DNA of 64,000 nucleotides from an uncultured Candidatus Saccharibacteria bacterium (GCA_964576615.1 CAZNUU010000001.1:31309-95308), one strand, 5' to 3'. Positions 2,393 to 62,920 are shown, counted from the stretch's first letter. Numbers and translations: made by a program. The notes: generated by a model not told the origin, from the sequence alone.

Positions 2393-2455
2393 CACAGTGA
2401 AGCCGGTAGTTGTCAATCATATGACACTACCGGTTTTAAGTTTAAGTAAATTTTG

Positions 2456-2527
2456 TGACCCTACGGGGAGTCGAACCCCGATTGCAGCCTTGAGAAGGCC
2501 GCGTCCTAACCATTAGACGATAGGGCC
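2456..2527 (-). tRNA. tRNA-Glu (anticodon CUC); CCA not encoded
   Basis: Hand-folded cloverleaf. Acceptor GGCCCUA/UAGGGUC. D-stem GUCU/GGAC. Anticodon stem CGGCC/GGCUG (one G-U). Loop UUCUCAA has U33 and anticodon CUC. T-arm CGGGG-UUCGACU-CCCCG. Discriminator A. Confidence 0.75.
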
Positions 2528-17479: not shown

Positions 17480-17727
17480 TTGGGTTCCTGTATTATAGAG
17501 ATACCTAAGATCCGGATGACACCGGTGAGGTAAGGGAAGAAAGCCCTAAAGCCTGATGGCTCGGGTAAATAGAACCCTCGGACTGCGACGTCGCAGATAA
17601 AAGAGACCCTAAAACATGATAATGTTCGGGTAAACAGGGTGGCACCGCGCTTAGTCGTTGCGAAGCAATTAGACACAAAGTCGCCCCTGCGAATTTATTA
17701 AATTAATGAATTCGGAGGGGCGTTTTT
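17480..17727 (+). promoter_or_regulatory. T-box riboswitch-like leader with intrinsic terminator
   Basis: AGAGA (GA/K-turn-like) motif near the 5' end of a Stem-I-like helix (gggttcc...gaaccc). T-box consensus AAACAGGGTGGCACCGCG at 17632-17649. Terminator CGCCCCTGCGAATT/AATTCGGAGGGGCG plus TTTTTGTTT at 17682-17730, directly upstream of the aaRS gene. Confidence 0.55.
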
Positions 17728-17755
17728 GTTTAAAAAACTCTTCGAAAAAATAAAT

Positions 17756-19051
17756 ATGATCAAGCGAATTTATAATAAAGAAATTGGCAGTCACGTTGGA
17801 GAAGAGATCTCTGTGGTTGGTTTTGTGCAAACACTTCGGGTCCAAAGTAAGATAATATTTATCGTATCACGAGATGTATCGGGTGTGATTCAAAATGTAA
17901 TTGAGGCATCAAGTCCGGCTTTTGAAGTTGCAAGAAATTTGTCGCTTGAATCAGTTGTTAGAATTACCGGAACAGTCAAGGAATCGAAGCAGGCTCCCGG
18001 TGGTGCGGAAGTGAATGTTTCCAGTATCGAGGTTTTATCAGTTGCAGCACCAGAATTACCGATTCCGGTTGTGATAAAGGGCGGAGATGAAGAAACCGAA
18101 GCGCCCACCAGATTCGATTTTCGTTGGATTGACCTACGTAAACCAGAAAAGACGAAAATATTTGAAGTTTGGACAGAGCTGGAAAAAGGCTTCAGGAAAT
18201 ACTGGAATGAAAATAATTTTATTCAGCTTTATTCACCTAATTTTTTACAGACTCAGTCAGAGTCTGGCGCTGAAGTTTTTACAGTGAATTACTTTGATCG
18301 CAAGGCTTATCTTCCCCAATCACCCCAATTCTACAAACAAATGGGTATGGCATCAGGTTTCGAGAGAGTTTTTATGGTTGGGCCGGTCTTCAGAGCTGAG
18401 CCATCATTTACGACTCGTCATTTAACGGAGTTTACCGGCTGGGACTTTGAAATCTCGTACATTGAAAGTCATAATGATGTTATGGATGAGGAAGAGGGAA
18501 TGATAGTCGAGGGGTTTAAGGCGGTTCTAGAGAAATTTCCAGATATAGGCATAACTGTGCCAGAGAGACCCTTCCCGAGAATTACGATGGTTGAGACAAA
18601 AAAAATTCTTGCTGAAAAAGGTATACCTAGTGGGGAAAATTATGATCTTTCACCAGAGGAAGAAAGAGCAATTAGTGAATATGTGAAAGAAAAGTATAAT
18701 CACGAGTTTGTTTTTATTACCGAGTATCACAAATCCAAAAGTGCGTTTTATCACATGAGGCTTAAGGAGGGAAGTGACCACTCACGACGTGCTGATCTAC
18801 TGTATCGTGGGCTTGAAGTCACCACCTTGGCCCAGCGCGAACATAGGCCGGATATTTTAGTTAAGCAATTAGAAGAGAAGGGAATGTCCCGTGAAGCCCA
18901 CAAGGATTTTATCAATTTCTTCAGTTATGGATGTCCTCCACACGGTGGTGCAGGTATCGGACCAGGAAGGTTTATTATGAAAATCTTGGATTTACCAAAC
19001 GTGAGAGAAGCTACATACCTACCTCGTGATGTTAAGAGATTGAATCCGTAA
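17756..19051 (+). CDS. Class IIb aspartyl/asparaginyl-tRNA synthetase (AspRS/AsnRS family; archaeal-type short form)
   Basis: N-terminal OB anticodon-binding fold. Motif 2 FRAEPSFTTRHLTEFTGWDFE. Motif 3 GCPPHGGAGIGPGRFIM. C-terminal LPRDVKRLNP. The track ORF starts at 17726 inside the terminator T-tract, so the ATG at 17756 is preferred. Confidence 0.75.
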   Translation: MIKRIYNKEIGSHVGEEISVVGFVQTLRVQSKIIFIVSRDVSGVIQNVIEASSPAFEVARNLSLESVVRITGTVKESKQAPGGAEVNVSSIEVLSVAAPELPIPVVIKGGDEETEAPTRFDFRWIDLRKPEKTKIFEVWTELEKGFRKYWNENNFIQLYSPNFLQTQSESGAEVFTVNYFDRKAYLPQSPQFYKQMGMASGFERVFMVGPVFRAEPSFTTRHLTEFTGWDFEISYIESHNDVMDEEEGMIVEGFKAVLEKFPDIGITVPERPFPRITMVETKKILAEKGIPSGENYDLSPEEERAISEYVKEKYNHEFVFITEYHKSKSAFYHMRLKEGSDHSRRADLLYRGLEVTTLAQREHRPDILVKQLEEKGMSREAHKDFINFFSYGCPPHGGAGIGPGRFIMKILDLPNVREATYLPRDVKRLNP

Positions 19052-29614: not shown

Positions 29615-30958
29615 ATGAATAAAATAGTCACAAGATTTGCACCATCGCCCACAGGCCAGTTTCATTTAGGAGGAGTTAGAACAGCCCTTTATAATTATCT
29701 CTTTGCCAGGCAAAATGCAGGAACTTACATACTGCGAAGTGAGGATACGGATAAAGCTAGATCAAAGAAAGAGTATGAAGATTCGTTTCTGGAGCTCTTT
29801 AAGTGGCTCTCATTAGAGCATGATGCTTTTTATCGACAATCAGAGCGTGGTGAAATGTACAAAAAATATATTGAAAAATTAATTGCGGATGGTTTTGCCT
29901 ACATTTCACACGAAGAACCAGCAGAAGAGGGGCAGAGATCTGAAGTGATTCGTTTTAAGAACCCAAATAAAACTATTACTTTTAGTGACATCATCTTGGG
30001 CGACATAGCGGTTGACACAACTGACCTCAAGGATTTTGTTATTGCGCGATCTATTGAGGAGCCACTCTACCATCTTACTGTCGTGGTGGATGATCATGAA
30101 ATGGGCGTAACTCACATTATTCGCGGCCAGGAACATATTTCAAATACTCCAAGACAGATTCTTATTCAAGAGGCTATAGGAGCAAAACGACCTTTATATG
30201 CTCATTTACCGCTTATTTTGGGCAAGGATAAAAGCAAGCTCTCAAAACGAGATCCTCAGGTCATTCCGGCTATAGAATATAGAGATTTGGGTTATTTACC
30301 TGAATCTATACTAAATTTCATGGCTTTAATAGGTTGGAATCCGGGCGGCGAAGATGAGATTTTTTCACTTCCAGATCTAGTTTCTAGGTTCGATCTCACA
30401 AAAGTCCAAAAGGGTGGGGGAGTATTCAATCCGGAAAAACTGAATTGGCTAAATAAAGAGCACATGAAGCTTTTGCCTAAAAGTAAGGTAAGGGAAGAGA
30501 TTTCGGAGCGTCTAAGTAAAAGCAAATTCTCTGATAGTCCAAGACTGCAGGATGAAAATTTTATGCAAAAAATCTCTGAAATTATTTTTGATCGAATTTC
30601 AAGTTGGGGCGAGATTGACGAAATAATCGGGGCAGGGGAGTTTGATTATCTTTTTGAGGAACCTAATTATGAACCAGGACTTCTCTTCCCAAAAGATGAA
30701 AAAGACAAAACTGAATTAAATAAGCATCTAAGTTGGATTTTGGATAAATTAGCCCACTCAGAGTTTAATTCTGCAGACGATATTAAAAATATCGTGTTCG
30801 ACTATGCCACTGCAAATGGTAGAGGTAAGGTTTTGTGGCCCCTTCGAGTTGCCCTTTCTGGCAGAGAAAAAAGTATTGACCCTTTTACTCTTATTTATCT
30901 TTTGGGCAAAGATGATAGTCTGAAGAGAATAAATAATGCAATTGCAAAATTATCATAA
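29615..30958 (+). CDS. gltX: Glutamyl-tRNA synthetase
   Basis: RFAPSPTGQFHLGGVRTALYNYLFAR (HIGH-type) and KLSKR (KMSKS-type) motifs. 447 aa. Confidence 0.85.
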   Translation: MNKIVTRFAPSPTGQFHLGGVRTALYNYLFARQNAGTYILRSEDTDKARSKKEYEDSFLELFKWLSLEHDAFYRQSERGEMYKKYIEKLIADGFAYISHEEPAEEGQRSEVIRFKNPNKTITFSDIILGDIAVDTTDLKDFVIARSIEEPLYHLTVVVDDHEMGVTHIIRGQEHISNTPRQILIQEAIGAKRPLYAHLPLILGKDKSKLSKRDPQVIPAIEYRDLGYLPESILNFMALIGWNPGGEDEIFSLPDLVSRFDLTKVQKGGGVFNPEKLNWLNKEHMKLLPKSKVREEISERLSKSKFSDSPRLQDENFMQKISEIIFDRISSWGEIDEIIGAGEFDYLFEEPNYEPGLLFPKDEKDKTELNKHLSWILDKLAHSEFNSADDIKNIVFDYATANGRGKVLWPLRVALSGREKSIDPFTLIYLLGKDDSLKRINNAIAKLS

Positions 30959-49352: not shown

Positions 49353-50537
49353 TCATTCATTAAATATTTTTTTATAGAAGATTGACTCAATCTCCAGAAA
49401 TTCATCTTCCTCTACAAATGCACTGACATCACACAGCCCTTGGAGTTCTTCGTGGCCAATTTTTGTTACATTTACCTGCTTTCTAAAAGCTCCTGTCGAG
49501 TCTGTCTTTGAGAGCTTAATAAAATCAGAATAAATATCTGAGACATCACTATCTGAGGTAATATAGATAAGTCCTGGCAAAGTCATGGCGGGCGACAACT
49601 CTCCCAGAGCGCTTTCAAAATAAATTGACCACTCCTTTTCTACATTAGATAGAACTTTGAGAGTAGCATCATTTGATACGTCATCCATATCCTTGTTGTT
49701 AAATTGGTGAAGCATTGAAAGAGCAATATCATAAGTTGCCCCAGTAGATTTGGCCAACTGTCTTATAATAAAGTTTTTTCCAGAAGGAAATGAAACGCTT
49801 TTTTCGATAACATTATTATTCACCAAAGTCAGATCGGTCACATCCGCGCTTATATCCATTAAAATAAAACTGGAGTTGCCAGGATACATATCACGCAGTA
49901 TTGAAAATGAGATTAGGGGAAAAGTATGTAGTAGTATGTCATGCCTCGAGACATTGACATGTTTCAGAATTGAATCCAGAACGGAATCTGCTACGTTTTT
50001 TTCTATCGCAGATAAACACAAAAAAGCATCGAAACTTTTTGTCTTCTGACCTATATTATTCTCAATGATATAACCATTTATTTTAGTGTGCACAATGCTT
50101 TTCTCGATGACCTTAAATTCCCCTCCTGATGTCGATCCTTTTTTCAAATCGTCAGTAAATACCCTCTCCTCTTTTCCCACAATATCGTCTAAGAATTCTT
50201 GAGATATCAAAAAGGGTCTATCTTGTGTTAGTTGTAGATGTTTAGTCTTTAAGACAAACCAAGGAGAGGAGAAACTGACTAGGACACCAGAGATTTTTTT
50301 CTCTCCTGCTTTCTTTATTCCTTCTCTAAGCACATCTGTAAGTACCTCACCAACTAACAAAGGCAGATCTTCCACCAGTCTTCCCGGATCCGGCGTCTCT
50401 AAAATACTGAGTGGCAAACGAACAGTGTAAGCAATATTTGGCTTTGTGTTTTTACTTAAAGCAAGAAGTGCGCCGCCTACTGTTCCATTTCCAATATCAA
50501 TTATTAATAGAGTCTCTTCGTTACTAAAAATAGCCAT
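49353..50537 (-). CDS. Hypothetical protein, possible actin-like ATPase fold (PilM/FtsA-like)
   Basis: N-terminal LLIIDIGNGTVGGALL resembles the phosphate-1 motif of ASKHA ATPases. Weak evidence. Confidence 0.3.
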   Translation of the reverse strand: MAIFSNEETLLIIDIGNGTVGGALLALSKNTKPNIAYTVRLPLSILETPDPGRLVEDLPLLVGEVLTDVLREGIKKAGEKKISGVLVSFSSPWFVLKTKHLQLTQDRPFLISQEFLDDIVGKEERVFTDDLKKGSTSGGEFKVIEKSIVHTKINGYIIENNIGQKTKSFDAFLCLSAIEKNVADSVLDSILKHVNVSRHDILLHTFPLISFSILRDMYPGNSSFILMDISADVTDLTLVNNNVIEKSVSFPSGKNFIIRQLAKSTGATYDIALSMLHQFNNKDMDDVSNDATLKVLSNVEKEWSIYFESALGELSPAMTLPGLIYITSDSDVSDIYSDFIKLSKTDSTGAFRKQVNVTKIGHEELQGLCDVSAFVEEDEFLEIESIFYKKIFNE

Positions 50538-50546
50538 AGATAAGGC

Positions 50547-52160
50547 TTATTCTAACACAGCTTTTATACGCCTTACACCAGAGGAAACCGCTTCTTCCTT
50601 CTGGATTTTAAAATGTCCCAATACAAATGTATTTTTAACATGGGGTCCCCCACAAAATTCTTTGGAATAGGCCCCCTCTAATGAATCGCCTATATAATAA
50701 ATACTAACCTCATCACCGTATTTTTCTTGGAAAAAGTGTAAAGCCCCAGTTTTTTCTGCCTCCGCCCTGCTTAGGACAACATTGTTCACAGCTAATCCCT
50801 CTTTTATCTTTGAGTTCACAATATCTTCAACTTTCTTTTTTTCATCATCTGTCATTTTTCGAGGATAGGAGAAATCAAATCGTAGTCTATCCGGAGTAAT
50901 ATTGCTACCTTTCTGCTCAACCTCCTTACCTAAAACATCTCTCAGCGCCTGGTGAAGTAAGTGTGTGGCAGTGTGGTATTTTGTTTCCATCTCTCCTGTG
51001 CTGGCTAGGCCGCCTTTGAATTTTTGCTCCGCACCGGCACGTGAAAGTTCTTGGTGGTTTTTAAATTCATCCCAGAACTTCTGTTCATCAATAGTTCGCC
51101 CTTTTTCCTTGGCTAACTCTTTTGTTAACTCGAGCGGAAACCCATAACTAGTAAAAAGCACAAACGGGTCAGTACCCTTTTCAAATTCCTTAAGTCCATC
51201 GTTTAATGTTTTTTTAAATCTTTCTTCTTCTCTTTGTATCTCGTTAATATTTTCAAGTGCATATACTCCACTATAAATTTTTTGAATTTTTTCGATTTCA
51301 GTTGCCAAGGTATCTTTTGCTAACCTGACAGCTCTTCTAATCAGTCTCCTTAGGATGTATCCGCTGCCAACATTTGAAGGGACTACACCATCATTTATCA
51401 TAAAAAGAGCTGCTTTAACATGATCAGCGATCACTCTCTCCTCCTTTGTCCTCTCTCCATTAAATAAATCTGTCTCAAATACATTCTTTTTATTCTGAAC
51501 CTGAACCAAAAGCCTCTCGAGGCCCATACCTGTATCTATACCTTTAGTTTTAAGTGGTTCATATATCCCACCTTTGGTTTTATAATATTCGTTAAAAACA
51601 ATATTCCAGATCTCCACACTATTTATATATATCTCCGTAGTTGGCCCACAAGGCCCTTCCTCCCCTGTTGGCCCCCAGAAGTTGTCTTCTTTTTTATGTT
51701 CTCGAATATCCAAATTCGGATCTATGGACTGCCAAATCCCTCTTGACTCCTCATCGGCTGGAATACCACTCTCATCATCTCTAAATATAGATACATAATC
51801 TATTTTTAATCCAAGTTCTTTGGTTATAAATTCGTGTGCGTACTCTATTGCCTCTTTTTTCCAATACCCACCGAAGGAAAAGTTACCTAACATTTCAAAA
51901 AAAGTCAGATGTGTATCGTCCCCCACCTCATCAATATCTGAGGTACGAACACATTTTTGAACCGATACTGTGTTTTTTGATCCAAAGTCGACGACGGGAT
52001 CTTTCTCCCCGGTATAATATTTCTTGAACTGTTGCATCCCGGCAGTAGTAAAAAGTACCGATGAGTCATTCTGCGGCACAAGCGAAGATGACGGCACTAT
52101 TGTATGATCTTTCTGCTCAAAAAAATTTAAAAACTTTTCTCTAATCTCGCGTGAAGTCAT
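50547..52160 (-). CDS. alaS: Alanyl-tRNA synthetase, short form (537 aa)
   Basis: N-terminal class II AlaRS catalytic core (FTTAGMQQFK). Editing-type motifs HTATHLLHQAL and CGGPHV. Lacks most of the C-terminal extension of canonical AlaRS. Confidence 0.7.
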   Translation of the reverse strand: MTSREIREKFLNFFEQKDHTIVPSSSLVPQNDSSVLFTTAGMQQFKKYYTGEKDPVVDFGSKNTVSVQKCVRTSDIDEVGDDTHLTFFEMLGNFSFGGYWKKEAIEYAHEFITKELGLKIDYVSIFRDDESGIPADEESRGIWQSIDPNLDIREHKKEDNFWGPTGEEGPCGPTTEIYINSVEIWNIVFNEYYKTKGGIYEPLKTKGIDTGMGLERLLVQVQNKKNVFETDLFNGERTKEERVIADHVKAALFMINDGVVPSNVGSGYILRRLIRRAVRLAKDTLATEIEKIQKIYSGVYALENINEIQREEERFKKTLNDGLKEFEKGTDPFVLFTSYGFPLELTKELAKEKGRTIDEQKFWDEFKNHQELSRAGAEQKFKGGLASTGEMETKYHTATHLLHQALRDVLGKEVEQKGSNITPDRLRFDFSYPRKMTDDEKKKVEDIVNSKIKEGLAVNNVVLSRAEAEKTGALHFFQEKYGDEVSIYYIGDSLEGAYSKEFCGGPHVKNTFVLGHFKIQKEEAVSSGVRRIKAVLE

Positions 52161-58607: not shown

Positions 58608-61487
58608 TTATAAAACAAAATTAACAAGGCGATTCTTAACAAATATAGTCTTTTTTATTTCCTTATTTTGCAGCCATTTTTCAATATCCGGTAGTGCCTT
58701 AGCGAGTGAAGCCACTACCTCCTCGGTCTCATCTATTTTTACTTTAAGCTCAGCTCTGACTCTGCTGTTAACCTGAACCGCAATAGTAACCTCTTGGGAT
58801 TTTAATTTTGATTTGTCGGCTTGCGGCCAAGATTCATTGACCAATAGTGACTTATTACCAACTCTTTGCCATAGCTCCGAGGTAGAGTGCGGCGCAAATG
58901 GGCAGAGTAGTTTTAAGAACATTTCAAAATCCTTAACACTTACTTTTTCAGTTTTTTCCATTTCATTTAGAAGTATCATCATAGATGAGACGGCTGTATT
59001 AAAAGACATTGTTTCTATATCGGAAGTTACTTTCTCTATGGTCCGATGAAGTAGTGAGTCAAATTTCTCTGAGGATTTTTTGCTATTGGCCTGTAAAATT
59101 CTATCTGAAATTCTCCAAACTCTTTCTAAAAATCTCCTGACTCCTAAGATATTTTCATCCCCCCACATTGCCGCTTGGCCAAATGGACCAATGAACATTT
59201 CATAGAGCCTAAGCGAATCCGCTCCATAAGTTTTTACAATGTCATCCGGATTTATCACGTTCCCAAATCTCTTTGACATTTTTCTGCCATCCGAAGCGTG
59301 TATTAGTCCAACATTTTGAAGTCTCTGGAACGGCTCTTTGGTAGAAACGACACCAATATCATAGAGAAACTTATGCCAAAATCTCGCATAAATTAGGTGC
59401 CTGGTTGCATGCTCTGCCCCACCCACATAAAGATCGACCGTGTTCCAGTATTTTTCCTTTTTCTTATCAACTAGAGCCTTGTTGTTGTTCGGATCCATAT
59501 ATCTTAAGTAATACCAAGAAGAACCGGCCCACTGCGGCATGGTATTAGATTCCCGTCTCAACATTTTTTTGCCGACCTTATAGTTTATCCAACCTGGAAT
59601 ACTAGCTAGGGGCGATTCCGCTGTACCGGTTGGTTCGTATGATTTAACCTGAGGTAATTTGACTGGCAAATCTCTCTCCGGCACAGGAATGACTTTGTGT
59701 TTTAGAACTTCTATCTTGGCATTTTTAACCCCCAGTTCGTCGTCGAATAAGACAGGTATAGGTTCCCCCCAATATCTTTGCCTAGAAAACACCCAGTCAC
59801 GAAGCTTGTATTTCGTTACCCACTTGCCCTTTACAGACTTTGTAATATCTCTTTTGACTTTATCCGAGTCGAGACTTGAAAATTTTCCAGAATTAATGAG
59901 CACACCGTTACCAGTAAATGTTTTTCCTTCTTTTAGTAATAAATCGAGCGCATATTGATGAGTTTGGGCACTCAAACTTTTTCGAAGCTCGCTTGTTGTT
60001 TGCCAAGTTATTTCGTGAGTATCATTTTCTTCGTTTGATATCTCCTCTTTCTTTGGATCTTTCAATTTGAAAACGAGAATGTGCGCATCTACAAGTTTAT
60101 TTGTCTTCTTTGGGACATGATAAAAAAGCCCATGAACCTTACCCAGTTCATTCACATATTCCAAATTTAAATAACCGGTCTCTTCTTTTATCTCTCTAAT
60201 TGCCGTCTCTTTGGGATTTTCTTTCTCTATTGTTCCAGTTAAAAGCGTAGTCCATGCAACCTTTTTCCACTTAAGTGCAACGTATTTGTCATCCTTCCAG
60301 TGCTTTACAAAAGTTATTACTCCCGGCCTCCTTAGTATCGGCTCCTCTTTTCTGTAGGCCCCAGGCTCATAGTCTTGGATAAAAAGTGGTTCAATTACTT
60401 GCTTGACTTGTAAATTATACTTCTCTGCAAATTCTCCATCTCGTTCATCATGCGCAGGGACAGCCATAATTGCACCTGTACCATAGGTAGCTAGAACATA
60501 ATCCGCGATCCAAATTGGAATTTTTTCTTTATTTGCCGGATTGATTGCAAATATTCCTTTTGCTTCCACTCCGGTTTTTTCCTTACCCTCTGCAGTTCTT
60601 TCAATTTCTGGTTTATTTTTTACACTTTCCAAATAATTTTGAATTTCTTTTTTATTTTCAATTTGATCCCATAATTCCTTTATGATCTTATGCTCTGGTG
60701 CAAGAACAACATAAGTTGCACCAAAGATCGTATCGGGCCTAGTGGTGAAAATTTTTATACTTTGGGGATTTTTAGAAACCTCAAAATCTATCTCCGCTCC
60801 CTCCGAGCGCCCGATCCAATTTCTCTGGCTTTCCTTTATAGATTCCGGCCAGTCCAATAAACTAAGGTCTTCCAGCATTCGATCTGCATACTTAGTAATA
60901 GCTAAAACCCATTGGCGAATAGGTCTTTTCTCAACCGTTGCGCCACATCTTTCACACTTGCCATTTTCGACGTCTTCGTTAGCTAAAATAGTTTTATCCA
61001 CCGGACACCAGTTCACAGGTTCGTTCGATTCATATGCTAGGCCGTGCTCCAGGAGTTTCAAAAATATCCACTGCGTCCATTTGTAAAACTTTGGGTCAGT
61101 TGTATTTACTTCGCGCGACCAGTCATAATCCAGACCAATAATCTCAAGTTGTTTTTTATATCGTGCGACATTTTTTGCCACGGCAACTGCCGGGTTGGTC
61201 TTTGTTTGGATCGCATAGTTCTCCGCTGGCAGTCCAAACGCATCAAAGCCCATCGGGTGAAGCACATTAAACCCCTGCATCCTTTTCATACGCGAAATTA
61301 TGTCGGTAGCAATATAACCCTTGGGGTGACCAACATGAAGTCCCTCACCCGAGGGGTAAGGAAACATATCAAGAATGTAGTATTTTTTCTTTTTTGAACC
61401 GGGCTCTTCAGTTTTAAAAGCCTTACTTTTGGCCCAAATAGATTGCCATTTTTTCTCAATAGCTGAGTGATTATACTCGCTTTTCAT
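58608..61487 (-). CDS. leuS: Leucyl-tRNA synthetase with inserted Nudix-hydrolase domain and reduced CP1 region
   Basis: HVGH (HIGH) and KMSKR motifs. LeuRS blocks TTRPDT, GTGAIMAVPAHDERDGEFA and RDWVFSRQRYWGEPIP. A Nudix box ETAIREIKEETGY and about 150 aa of Nudix fold lie between them (aa about 375-520). Confidence 0.85.
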   Translation of the reverse strand: MKSEYNHSAIEKKWQSIWAKSKAFKTEEPGSKKKKYYILDMFPYPSGEGLHVGHPKGYIATDIISRMKRMQGFNVLHPMGFDAFGLPAENYAIQTKTNPAVAVAKNVARYKKQLEIIGLDYDWSREVNTTDPKFYKWTQWIFLKLLEHGLAYESNEPVNWCPVDKTILANEDVENGKCERCGATVEKRPIRQWVLAITKYADRMLEDLSLLDWPESIKESQRNWIGRSEGAEIDFEVSKNPQSIKIFTTRPDTIFGATYVVLAPEHKIIKELWDQIENKKEIQNYLESVKNKPEIERTAEGKEKTGVEAKGIFAINPANKEKIPIWIADYVLATYGTGAIMAVPAHDERDGEFAEKYNLQVKQVIEPLFIQDYEPGAYRKEEPILRRPGVITFVKHWKDDKYVALKWKKVAWTTLLTGTIEKENPKETAIREIKEETGYLNLEYVNELGKVHGLFYHVPKKTNKLVDAHILVFKLKDPKKEEISNEENDTHEITWQTTSELRKSLSAQTHQYALDLLLKEGKTFTGNGVLINSGKFSSLDSDKVKRDITKSVKGKWVTKYKLRDWVFSRQRYWGEPIPVLFDDELGVKNAKIEVLKHKVIPVPERDLPVKLPQVKSYEPTGTAESPLASIPGWINYKVGKKMLRRESNTMPQWAGSSWYYLRYMDPNNNKALVDKKKEKYWNTVDLYVGGAEHATRHLIYARFWHKFLYDIGVVSTKEPFQRLQNVGLIHASDGRKMSKRFGNVINPDDIVKTYGADSLRLYEMFIGPFGQAAMWGDENILGVRRFLERVWRISDRILQANSKKSSEKFDSLLHRTIEKVTSDIETMSFNTAVSSMMILLNEMEKTEKVSVKDFEMFLKLLCPFAPHSTSELWQRVGNKSLLVNESWPQADKSKLKSQEVTIAVQVNSRVRAELKVKIDETEEVVASLAKALPDIEKWLQNKEIKKTIFVKNRLVNFVL

Positions 61488-62552: not shown

Positions 62553-62873
62553 ATGCTGGAAAAAAGACCAAGACGACCGCTTCACGAAGTGCTGCCCGAT
62601 CTGATTCGGTTGGCCTCGAGTGATGACCTGCTGTGCTATGGAGGTCTCATCGTACTTACGGAAATCCCGAAAAACCATGACCAGATCGCTGCCGCCTGGA
62701 AGAAGCGCTGCGCTGACATGGGCTGGGGCGAGAACGCAGCACAGCACGTCATGGACGATCTTGCCGCTCAGAAGCGCGCCGCCGAAGACAAGGCCGCCGC
62801 CAAGGTTGTGAGCATGGTCCACACACCCGCGGCTGGGGCTCCCGCCGAGGGCGAGCCTTCGCTCAGCAGCTGA
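62553..62873 (+). CDS. Hypothetical small Ala-rich protein (GC-rich cassette)
   Basis: AGGAG upstream of the ATG. GC-rich. Terminator caggcgtacga-ttaacc-tcgtacgcctg at 62879-62906 followed by an A/T tract. Confidence 0.35.
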   Translation: MLEKRPRRPLHEVLPDLIRLASSDDLLCYGGLIVLTEIPKNHDQIAAAWKKRCADMGWGENAAQHVMDDLAAQKRAAEDKAAAKVVSMVHTPAAGAPAEGEPSLSS

Positions 62874-62920
62874 AACACCAGGCGTACGATTAACCTCGTA
62901 CGCCTGAAATTATTTATAAA

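Follow-up and report, generated by a model that had tools for sequence, protein, structure and literature searches.

The stretch of DNA analysed here, a 64,000-nucleotide segment referred to as the window, comes from an uncultured Candidatus Saccharibacteria bacterium (GCA_964576615.1 CAZNUU010000001.1:31309-95308). On its minus strand, at 58608..61487, lies a leuS gene whose single uninterrupted open reading frame (ORF) of 959 amino acids (aa), followed by a stop codon, encodes a leucyl-tRNA synthetase (LeuRS). Aminoacyl-tRNA synthetases (aaRSs) are among the best-studied enzymes, and bacterial LeuRS is regarded as a two-site enzyme, with a synthetic site and an editing site in the CP1 domain, as well as a drug target. 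The window protein is assigned to the bacterial type by the NCBIfam model TIGR00396 (leuS_bact; 987.1 bits vs a cut-off of 548.4), and a Pfam scan identifies tRNA-synt_1, the editing domain PF13603 and Anticodon_1, plus a NUDIX domain. Since the HIGH and KMSKS motifs, a full CP1 and all of the editing motifs are there, this gene almost certainly encodes a complete, functional-looking LeuRS, into which a Nudix domain has been placed at the tip of the CP1 hairpin.

The leuS gene and its inserted Nudix module

All features of the gene are given on the minus strand, with motifs read from the translation. The N-terminal half of the Rossmann catalytic domain spans aa 1-221 (60825..61487; Pfam tRNA-synt_1 at aa 13-225) and contains the HIGH motif in the form HVGH (aa 51-54; 61326..61337). 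It is followed by the N-terminal and main part of CP1 (aa 222-367; 60387..60824), which is recognized by PF13603 and is collinear with residues 221-364 of T. thermophilus (Tt) LeuRS. This part features two editing-site motifs, TTRPDT (aa 248-253; 60729..60746) and GTGAIMAVPAHDERD (aa 336-350), the latter containing AHDERD at 60438..60455. Beyond the Nudix module (aa 368-523; 59919..60386), the C-terminal part of CP1 and the return linker (aa 524-575, FTGNGVLINSGKF...KYKLRDWVFSRQRYWGE; 59763..59918) align with Tt LeuRS from residue 377 onward, and the second stretch of both the PF13603 and the TIGR00396 matches falls here. The remainder of the protein (aa 576-959; 58611..59762) comprises the C-terminal half of the catalytic domain, with KMSKR as its KMSKS motif (aa 736-740; 59268..59282), and then the anticodon-binding and C-terminal domains (PF08264 at aa 811-925).

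An AlphaFold2 model of the whole LeuRS has a mean predicted local distance difference test score (pLDDT) of 85, with values of ~89-95 in the insert, and a predicted template modelling score (pTM) of 0.75. The body of the model matches Tt and E. coli LeuRS with a template modelling score of ~0.8 (Foldseek, target-normalised). The window protein shares with the Tt (1H3N/2BYT) and E. coli (4AQ7/4ARC) enzymes its family, a Rossmann domain split by CP1, the HIGH and KMSKS motifs, the editing motifs and the order of domains, at 30-36% identity. It differs from Tt LeuRS in carrying a Nudix module of ~156 aa in place of a 12-residue loop, and in the absence of the leucine-specific domain (~Tt 580-626) that the Tt enzyme has. 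At that point the alignment jumps over a few residues of the query, with query ~731 paired to Tt 579 and query 726 paired to Tt 627.

The insertion site was mapped by phmmer alignment to Tt LeuRS. The alignment is collinear on both sides of the module, with query 4-367 corresponding to Tt 3-364 and query 524-731 to Tt 377-579, and thus ~156 residues (aa 368-523) stand where Tt LeuRS has 12 (Tt 365-376). The loop concerned lies inside CP1, as positions 1-143 of the 185 in the PF13603 profile (219 bits in total) are matched before the insert (aa 222-368) and a second stretch follows after it. In insert-less sister LeuRS proteins, ...VKxVV is followed by 0-10 residues and then by G.G.LxNSG, which indicates that the module substitutes for a short hairpin tip and that its boundaries are clean. 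The hairpin loop that is replaced, in the C-terminal part of CP1, is 0-12 residues long; the junctions fall between VIEP and LFIQ and between EGKT and FTGN, and the net insertion amounts to ~145-156 aa. AHDxRD and RQRYWG are 224 aa apart in the window LeuRS vs 64-94 aa in insert-less relatives. The original prediction, made from the sequence alone, had described a spacing of ~190 aa where ~60 aa is normal; the expansion is real, and these figures approximate it.

The same prediction held that the segment between TTRPDT and AHDERD is a shrunken CP1, and that proofreading capacity may be lost. This is contradicted by the alignment, in which both motifs lie inside CP1 with a spacing identical to that of Tt LeuRS. 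Furthermore, T248, T249, R250, T253, D347 and D350 are invariant across 58 aligned relatives. There is no sign of proofreading loss, and editing activity is predicted from a CP1 of full length with its editing motifs. A CP1-deficient or editing-defective LeuRS of the Mycoplasma mobile type is ruled out by the complete CP1 and the motifs kept in it. M. mobile LeuRS (3ZIU), the precedent for the idea of lost proofreading, also comes from a small-genome lineage and matches the window protein outside CP1, but it lacks the domain that is complete in the window LeuRS.

The module consists of a linker, an alpha/beta/alpha sandwich, two C-terminal helices and a second linker. Pfam NUDIX (PF00293) matches aa 411-507 with 44.8 bits vs a gathering score of 21.1, which bears out the Nudix domain originally proposed at 59928..60365 (aa 375-520), a range that lies within the module. 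When modelled alone (aa 362-528), the module reaches a pLDDT of 92.4 and a pTM of 0.86 in AlphaFold2 with the strand and helix order of a Nudix domain, and fold searches with this model match the Nudix fold. The Nudix box, TGTIEKENPKETAIREIKEETGY (aa 417-439; 60171..60239), includes E423, R431, E432, E435, E436 and G438. It had been described as complete, which holds for the REUxEExGU portion and less so for the start of the box: the window copy reads G-x4-E-x7-REIKEETGY, its first loop being one residue short of the canonical G-x5-E found in most family members, and the second Gly of the family GG is a Thr. Downstream of the box lies the X-loop segment, FYHVPKKTNK (aa 455-464; 60096..60125).

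Recurrence, hosts and evolution of the subfamily

The identical 959-aa protein, with the same neighbours, is present in an independent Logan assembly of run SRR12313479. A scan of relatives, with one genome per species, yielded 80 related loci. In ~45 of these, the AHDxRD-to-RQRYWG distance is 208-231 aa and includes a conserved E-x7-RE-x2-EE-x-G, while most others measure 64-99 aa; the survey of related lineages that had been suggested thus finds the same-site insertion to be recurrent. The 47 inserts at the site used in the window can be aligned throughout, and homologous same-site inserts occur in dozens of metagenome-assembled genomes (MAGs) from separate studies. Three loci have same-site inserts of other lengths, with AHDxRD-to-RQRYWG distances of 321, 276 and 133 aa in L053, L072 and L080, respectively. 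A Nudix box is detectable in neither L072 nor L080, and in L053 the box is accompanied by ~100 extra residues; the loop may host other modules in these three.

Carriers among the Patescibacteria come from records titled Nomurabacteria, Paceibacterota, Kaiser-, Yonath- and Colwellbacteria. A coherent gut clade of MAGs labelled as uncultured Bacilli, Tenericutes, Mycoplasmatota or Erysipelotrichaceae, including Candidatus Onthousia (Bacillota), also carries the module. DPANN-labelled MAGs are among the carriers as well, one of them labelled 'Woesearchaeota'. In a collection of 5.8 billion proteins, PF00293 is found in ~84 of the best 120 LeuRS homologues, a listing that favours long matches.

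A word-indexed search with the insert alone gave no matches, and homologues had to be sought exhaustively with HMMER. With the module as query, phmmer returns 269 matches at E <= 1e-3 among 1.84 billion cluster representatives, 117 of them at E <= 1e-10. The best 150 of the 269 were classified by host, using pieces of the window LeuRS to sort them. LeuRS proteins or LeuRS fragments make up the great majority of these 150, and the multi-domain hosts among them are aaRSs only, namely LeuRS and, once, a class II ProRS. There is very little doubt that these modules form a distinct Nudix subfamily, which resides mostly inside the LeuRS of Patescibacteria, of some gut Bacilli/Mycoplasmatota-type bacteria and of some DPANN-labelled MAGs.

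Within LeuRS, the module occupies three sites. Site A is that of the window, after AHDxRD; site B lies between the first Rossmann half and CP1; and site C is within the second catalytic half. Up to three copies occur in one protein, as in P0001 and P0002, which have two at site B and one at site A, and Pfam confirms three NUDIX stretches in several giant LeuRS proteins. In addition, ~30 subfamily members of 155-190 aa are free-standing. A signature is common to all sites and to the free-standing members: R..v..ivkh...dkyl.l.wk...w..f..GGie.gE....aa.REi.EETGY...(F/Y)(Y/F)...K..NR.a......feL......eE...h...W. The LeuRS-borne copies may all derive from one capture followed by intragenic duplication.

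The free-standing members are genuine genes. Two of them, P0273 (L081 8001..8522) and P0274 (L084 8001..8483), encode proteins of ~160-173 aa on two unrelated small-genome contigs, in each case immediately downstream of a gene cluster, either secE-nusG-rplK or secE-nusG-rpsR. The member in L081 has a HIT-family gene upstream and an ArgRS gene 1.4 kb further on.

Some Patescibacteria LeuRS proteins of 1300-1560 aa have extra in-frame modules beside one to three Nudix copies. P0158 (1518 aa) contains a HAD phosphatase module at aa 997-1155, P0161 (1558 aa) a Ser_hydrolase/alpha-beta-hydrolase module at aa 651-771, and P0261 both Ser_hydrolase and DUF559 Vsr-like endonuclease modules at aa 253-403 and 462-564. 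LeuRS seems to be a hot spot for the insertion of hydrolase domains in these lineages.

The single ProRS host, P0108 (L168 2906..4837), is an archaeal-type class II enzyme (tRNA-synt_2b, HGTP_anticodon and ProRS-C_1) on an archaeal-looking contig. Its module has the full signature and sits between the anticodon-binding and C-terminal domains. The module is absent from all 80 related ProRS loci examined on metagenome contigs, which are up to 74% identical. Besides LeuRS, the window encodes an Asp/Asn-type aaRS (17726..19051), GluRS (29615..30958) and AlaRS (50547..52160), and none of these three carries the module; of the four aaRSs, LeuRS alone has an inserted domain.

A distance-based neighbour-joining tree of LeuRS cores, built on a sample biased towards module-bearing sequences, interleaves module-bearing and module-less Patescibacteria, and the Bacilli-type clade is uniformly module-bearing. 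The four closest relatives of the window LeuRS (L041, L042, L044 and L046; 72-76% core identity) are without the module. The next closest (L039, L001, L017 and L004; 66-68%) have it, and the module of L039 is the one most like that of the window. The simplest reading is vertical inheritance with repeated precise loss, and gain is also possible. Across the 45 module-bearing relatives, mean identity to the window is 34% for the module (maximum 53%) vs 72% and 61% for the N- and C-terminal parts of LeuRS. The losses in sister lineages prompted the question of whether the window copy is a degenerating relic. This is not supported, as the copy deviates at 2 of 15 conserved columns and two or more deviations are found in 25% of modules, which places it within the family range.

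Probable catalysis, candidate substrates and competing explanations

Residues of the Nudix box are strongly retained among the 155 modules compared: G418 in 153, E432 in 153, E435 in 147, E436 in 154, G438 in 154 and R431 in 116, with the three glutamates E432, E435 and E436 all kept in 144. Because these metal-binding glutamates persist while the module as a whole diverges fast, it is most likely an active Mg2+-dependent pyrophosphohydrolase, which would provide the synthetase with a third active site. Downstream of the box, the X-loop has an aromatic pair. Position 455 (+16 after the box) is F in 117 modules and Y in 32, and position 456 (+17) is Y in 87, F in 57 and H in 5; the window has Y456. 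The pair is followed by a K..N(R/K) family motif, with K460 in 149 of 155, N463 in 148 and R at position 464 in 130, where the window has K464. In the site-A modules L006, L020 and L039, the Arg of REx2EE is replaced by Ala, Glu or Met and the glutamates are kept; such replacement may mark a sub-lineage with altered catalysis.

An X-loop Tyr ~17 aa downstream of the Nudix box correlates with ApnA hydrolases (Dunn et al., 1999; summarised in PMC5389931). Y456, preceded by F455, occupies this marker position, which is a correlate and not a proof of function. The best PDB sequence match of the window module is the Ap4A (diadenosine tetraphosphate) hydrolase of Aquifex (E = 4e-4). Dinucleoside polyphosphate and polyphosphate hydrolases are among the best neighbours of the module by both sequence and structure, including Aquifex Ap4A hydrolase (3i7u), T. 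thermophilus Ndx1 (1vc8), M. tuberculosis Rv2985 (9cxx), human NUDT2 and DIPP/DDP1. These enzymes resemble the module in fold, box and X-loop aromatic residue. They differ from it in sharing 15-22% identity, in that over a third of modules have Phe at the marker position, and in that the module belongs to none of the curated models. The conserved basic residues R387, K460 and R/K464 would suit a polyphosphate chain.

The substrate would be a nucleoside 5'-polyphosphate compound, most plausibly Ap4A or another Ap3-5N. aaRSs synthesise Ap3-5N from aminoacyl-adenylate (PMC7705103), and dinucleoside polyphosphates would arise here when ATP or another nucleoside triphosphate attacks the adenylate bound to the enzyme. 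A hydrolase tethered to LeuRS could then clear this by-product or alarmone locally, at a stoichiometry fixed to translation capacity, in organisms whose gene sets are very small. The module would work autonomously, attached by a flexible tether and not built into the mechanism of aminoacylation or editing. This arrangement is favoured by the clean losses, the free-standing homologues and the absence of co-varying core positions: a comparison of 23 module-bearing with 24 module-less Patescibacteria LeuRS gave no usable signal, the largest difference in core-column frequency being 0.53, where the 95th percentile under shuffling of the labels was 0.49, with conservative changes.

A precedent for the design is NadM-Nudix, in which a HIGH-superfamily adenylyltransferase is fused to a Nudix domain that degrades the adenylylated product (PMC7824862). 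Like the window LeuRS, it joins a HIGH-motif adenylyl-transferring enzyme and a small accessory enzyme in one chain. The combination of an aaRS with an accessory enzyme is likewise a recognised category in NCBIfam, represented by NF040702 ('isoleucine--tRNA ligase, N-acetyltransferase domain-containing'). Unlike both of these, the window module sits within CP1 instead of being appended, and its partner is LeuRS. A connection with aaRS chemistry gains support from the host range, since the multi-domain hosts are aaRSs only and come from two structurally unrelated classes, but the weight of this argument is limited.

Taken as a whole, the proposal that LeuRS contains an active third, Nudix-type site that clears ApnN-type products is held tentatively and falls somewhat short of an even chance; we infer the substrate step. 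More doubtful is the wider version, in which the LeuRS of ultra-small-genome lineages (Patescibacteria, RF39-like Bacilli and some DPANN) would serve as a dedicated platform for a previously unrecognised, aaRS-associated Nudix subfamily that hydrolyses ApnN or another LeuRS-linked nucleotide in cis. The Ap4A idea of the original prediction is compatible with the X-loop aromatic residue and with the ApnA and polyphosphate hydrolases among the nearest folds. It is not established, and an RppH-like or a housekeeping activity would fit about equally.

Several observations weigh against ApnN clearance. The NCBIfam Nudix subfamily models give at best ~20-35 bits vs cut-offs above 100, and the most consistent of these weak matches are to RppH models (PRK00714 variants), found for 38 of 40 modules, followed by NudB and YtkD. 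The closest structure is 2azw, an Enterococcus faecalis MutT/Nudix protein from structural genomics whose function is not characterised; it is free-standing, ~20% identical to the module and without the K..NR motif, and offers no guide to what the module does. Differences between Nudix subfamilies in the fold search are small, and 57 of the 155 modules have Phe in place of Tyr at the marker position. LeuRS is not known to be among the strongest producers of Ap4A. Loss from the closest relatives of the window LeuRS shows that the module is dispensable, and the HAD, alpha/beta-hydrolase and DUF559 modules found in the same LeuRS family may mean that LeuRS is simply a permissive landing site. Finally, the ProRS-Nudix fusion is rare, a single case that carries modest weight only.

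A possible alternative, somewhat less probable than ApnN clearance, is that the module is a piggy-back housekeeping enzyme. It would then have a general role apart from LeuRS chemistry, for instance in sanitising the nucleotide pool or clearing up metabolites. It would sit in leuS only because CP1 surface loops tolerate insertions and because, in a streamlined genome, fusion to an essential gene guarantees that the two are expressed together. The free-standing homologues in similar small-genome contigs argue for this explanation, as do the Ser_hydrolase/alpha-beta-hydrolase, HAD and DUF559 modules that give the LeuRS family a permissive hot-spot pattern. Precise loss in sisters with no compensatory change detected points the same way, and weak NCBIfam matches extend to generic MutT, NudB and NudI models. 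Against it stands the narrow host range, since the best 150 matches include aaRSs as the only multi-domain hosts (LeuRS at three sites and ProRS once), a restriction that one would not expect if every permissive essential protein served equally well. The lack of the module in the other aaRS genes of the window also speaks against it.

An RppH-like RNA 5'-end pyrophosphohydrolase or decapping enzyme, acting on 5'-triphosphate, NAD-capped or Np4A-capped RNA that is possibly bound to LeuRS, is unlikely. The host protein does bind RNA, and the PRK00714 variants that match nearly all of the modules do so with a best E-value of 2.6e-10. Furthermore, both the decapping effector AvrM14 and NUDT12 are high-ranking matches when the module is searched by profile and by fold, appearing beside the Ap4A hydrolases in the PDB profile search among otherwise generic Nudix matches. 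However, all scores are far under the cut-offs: RppH and YtkD models give weak matches of ~17-35 bits vs cut-offs of 116-259, so that the module is not a member, and the window module reaches 16-22 bits vs 116-139. RNase P leaves mature tRNAs with a 5' monophosphate, and hence the most obvious RNA bound to LeuRS would not be a substrate. The module of ~150 aa also shows no evident RNA-binding extension.

It is quite unlikely that the module is non-catalytic and either senses a ligand such as ADP-ribose or Ap4A, as NrtR-type regulators do, or modulates LeuRS in a structural or interaction role. The shortened G-x4-E loop and the GG-to-GT change in the window copy fit such a role, as does the loss of the box Arg in L006, L020 and L039 and its retention in only 116 of 155 modules. 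However, the three metal-binding glutamates kept in 144 of 155 modules despite ~34% identity are typical of active enzymes, and nothing points to an interface that has co-evolved with the body of LeuRS.

Also quite unlikely, by a small margin the more so, is a neutral or selfish insertion, which would spread in and between leuS genes by recombination and be merely tolerated, like other large insertions in proteins of the candidate phyla radiation (CPR), having no selected function in the fusion. The patchy occurrence of the module among LeuRS branches that lack it would agree with this, together with the variety of sites and copy numbers, the fast sequence divergence and the DUF559 Vsr-like endonuclease module alongside in one relative. 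The strong retention of catalytic residues and the maintenance of the module by the whole Bacilli-type clade argue against it. The Pfam scan of the window LeuRS detects no intein or endonuclease family at E <= 1, and there is no compositional discontinuity, the G+C content being 0.38 in the module vs 0.40 in the rest of leuS. An origin from an intein or mobile element was rejected, as splice-junction residues and a G+C discontinuity are both lacking. The original prediction named a chance motif, or an artefact in which a frameshift or assembly error fused a separate nudix gene, as what would refute it. Nothing was found in favour of an artefact, and a chance motif, or a frameshift, mis-assembly or chimeric contig that joined a nudix gene to leuS, is practically excluded by the intact ORF, read in one frame with LeuRS sequence on both sides of the module, by the identical protein and neighbours in the independent assembly, and by the same-site insert in dozens of MAGs.

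The result is a known enzyme and a known fold in a recurrent, apparently undescribed combination present in hundreds of uncultured lineages. Searches of the open-access full-text literature found no account of Nudix fused to LeuRS or to another aaRS, the review of the Nudix clan contains neither 'tRNA' nor 'synthetase' (PMC5389931), and NCBIfam release 20 has no LeuRS+Nudix model. Where the homologues have names in their source records, these are 'leucine--tRNA ligase', 'leucyl-tRNA synthetase', 'class I tRNA ligase family protein' and, once, 'alpha/beta fold hydrolase'. The novelty originally suggested for the architecture therefore stands as far as description goes, but the architecture itself is common in public metagenomic data, with 269 representatives at E <= 1e-3 and LeuRS making up most of the 150 classified.

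If the module degrades Ap4A-type products, it would form a direct physical link between the makers of an alarmone and its remover, and what dinucleoside polyphosphates made by aaRSs mean for the cell could then be tested in one polypeptide. Together with the multi-copy proteins and the HAD or alpha/beta-hydrolase variants, this would, if true, define a new class of 'hydrolase-decorated' synthetases that couple aminoacylation to the turnover of nucleotides or alarmones. If its function is unrelated, reduced genomes would be seen to pack housekeeping enzymes into permissive loops of essential proteins. The insertions also provide natural evidence for points in LeuRS that tolerate large inserts, and 'leucine--tRNA ligase' annotations in CPR genomes conceal extra enzyme domains.

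Other features of the window

A single RNA gene was detected in the window, tRNA-Glu(CTC) at 2455..2527. On the plus strand at 62553..62873, an ORF of 106 aa (MLEKRPRRPLHEVLPDLIRL...) lies in an island of ~350 bp with ~61% G+C in a genome of ~40% G+C, with a hairpin after it at ~62884-62908. No Pfam model matches it, and its presence in the independent Logan assembly (L167 615..935) excludes a chimera. Flanked by ychF and a gene for a DUF5671 membrane protein, it has the look of a small gene of foreign origin. On the minus strand, the AlaRS ORF at 50547..52160 encodes 537 aa that comprise the catalytic domain and tRNA_SAD without the C-terminal domain. Directly after it, at 49353..50537 (minus strand), lies an ORF of 394 aa with no Pfam match; AlaRS may be shortened or split.

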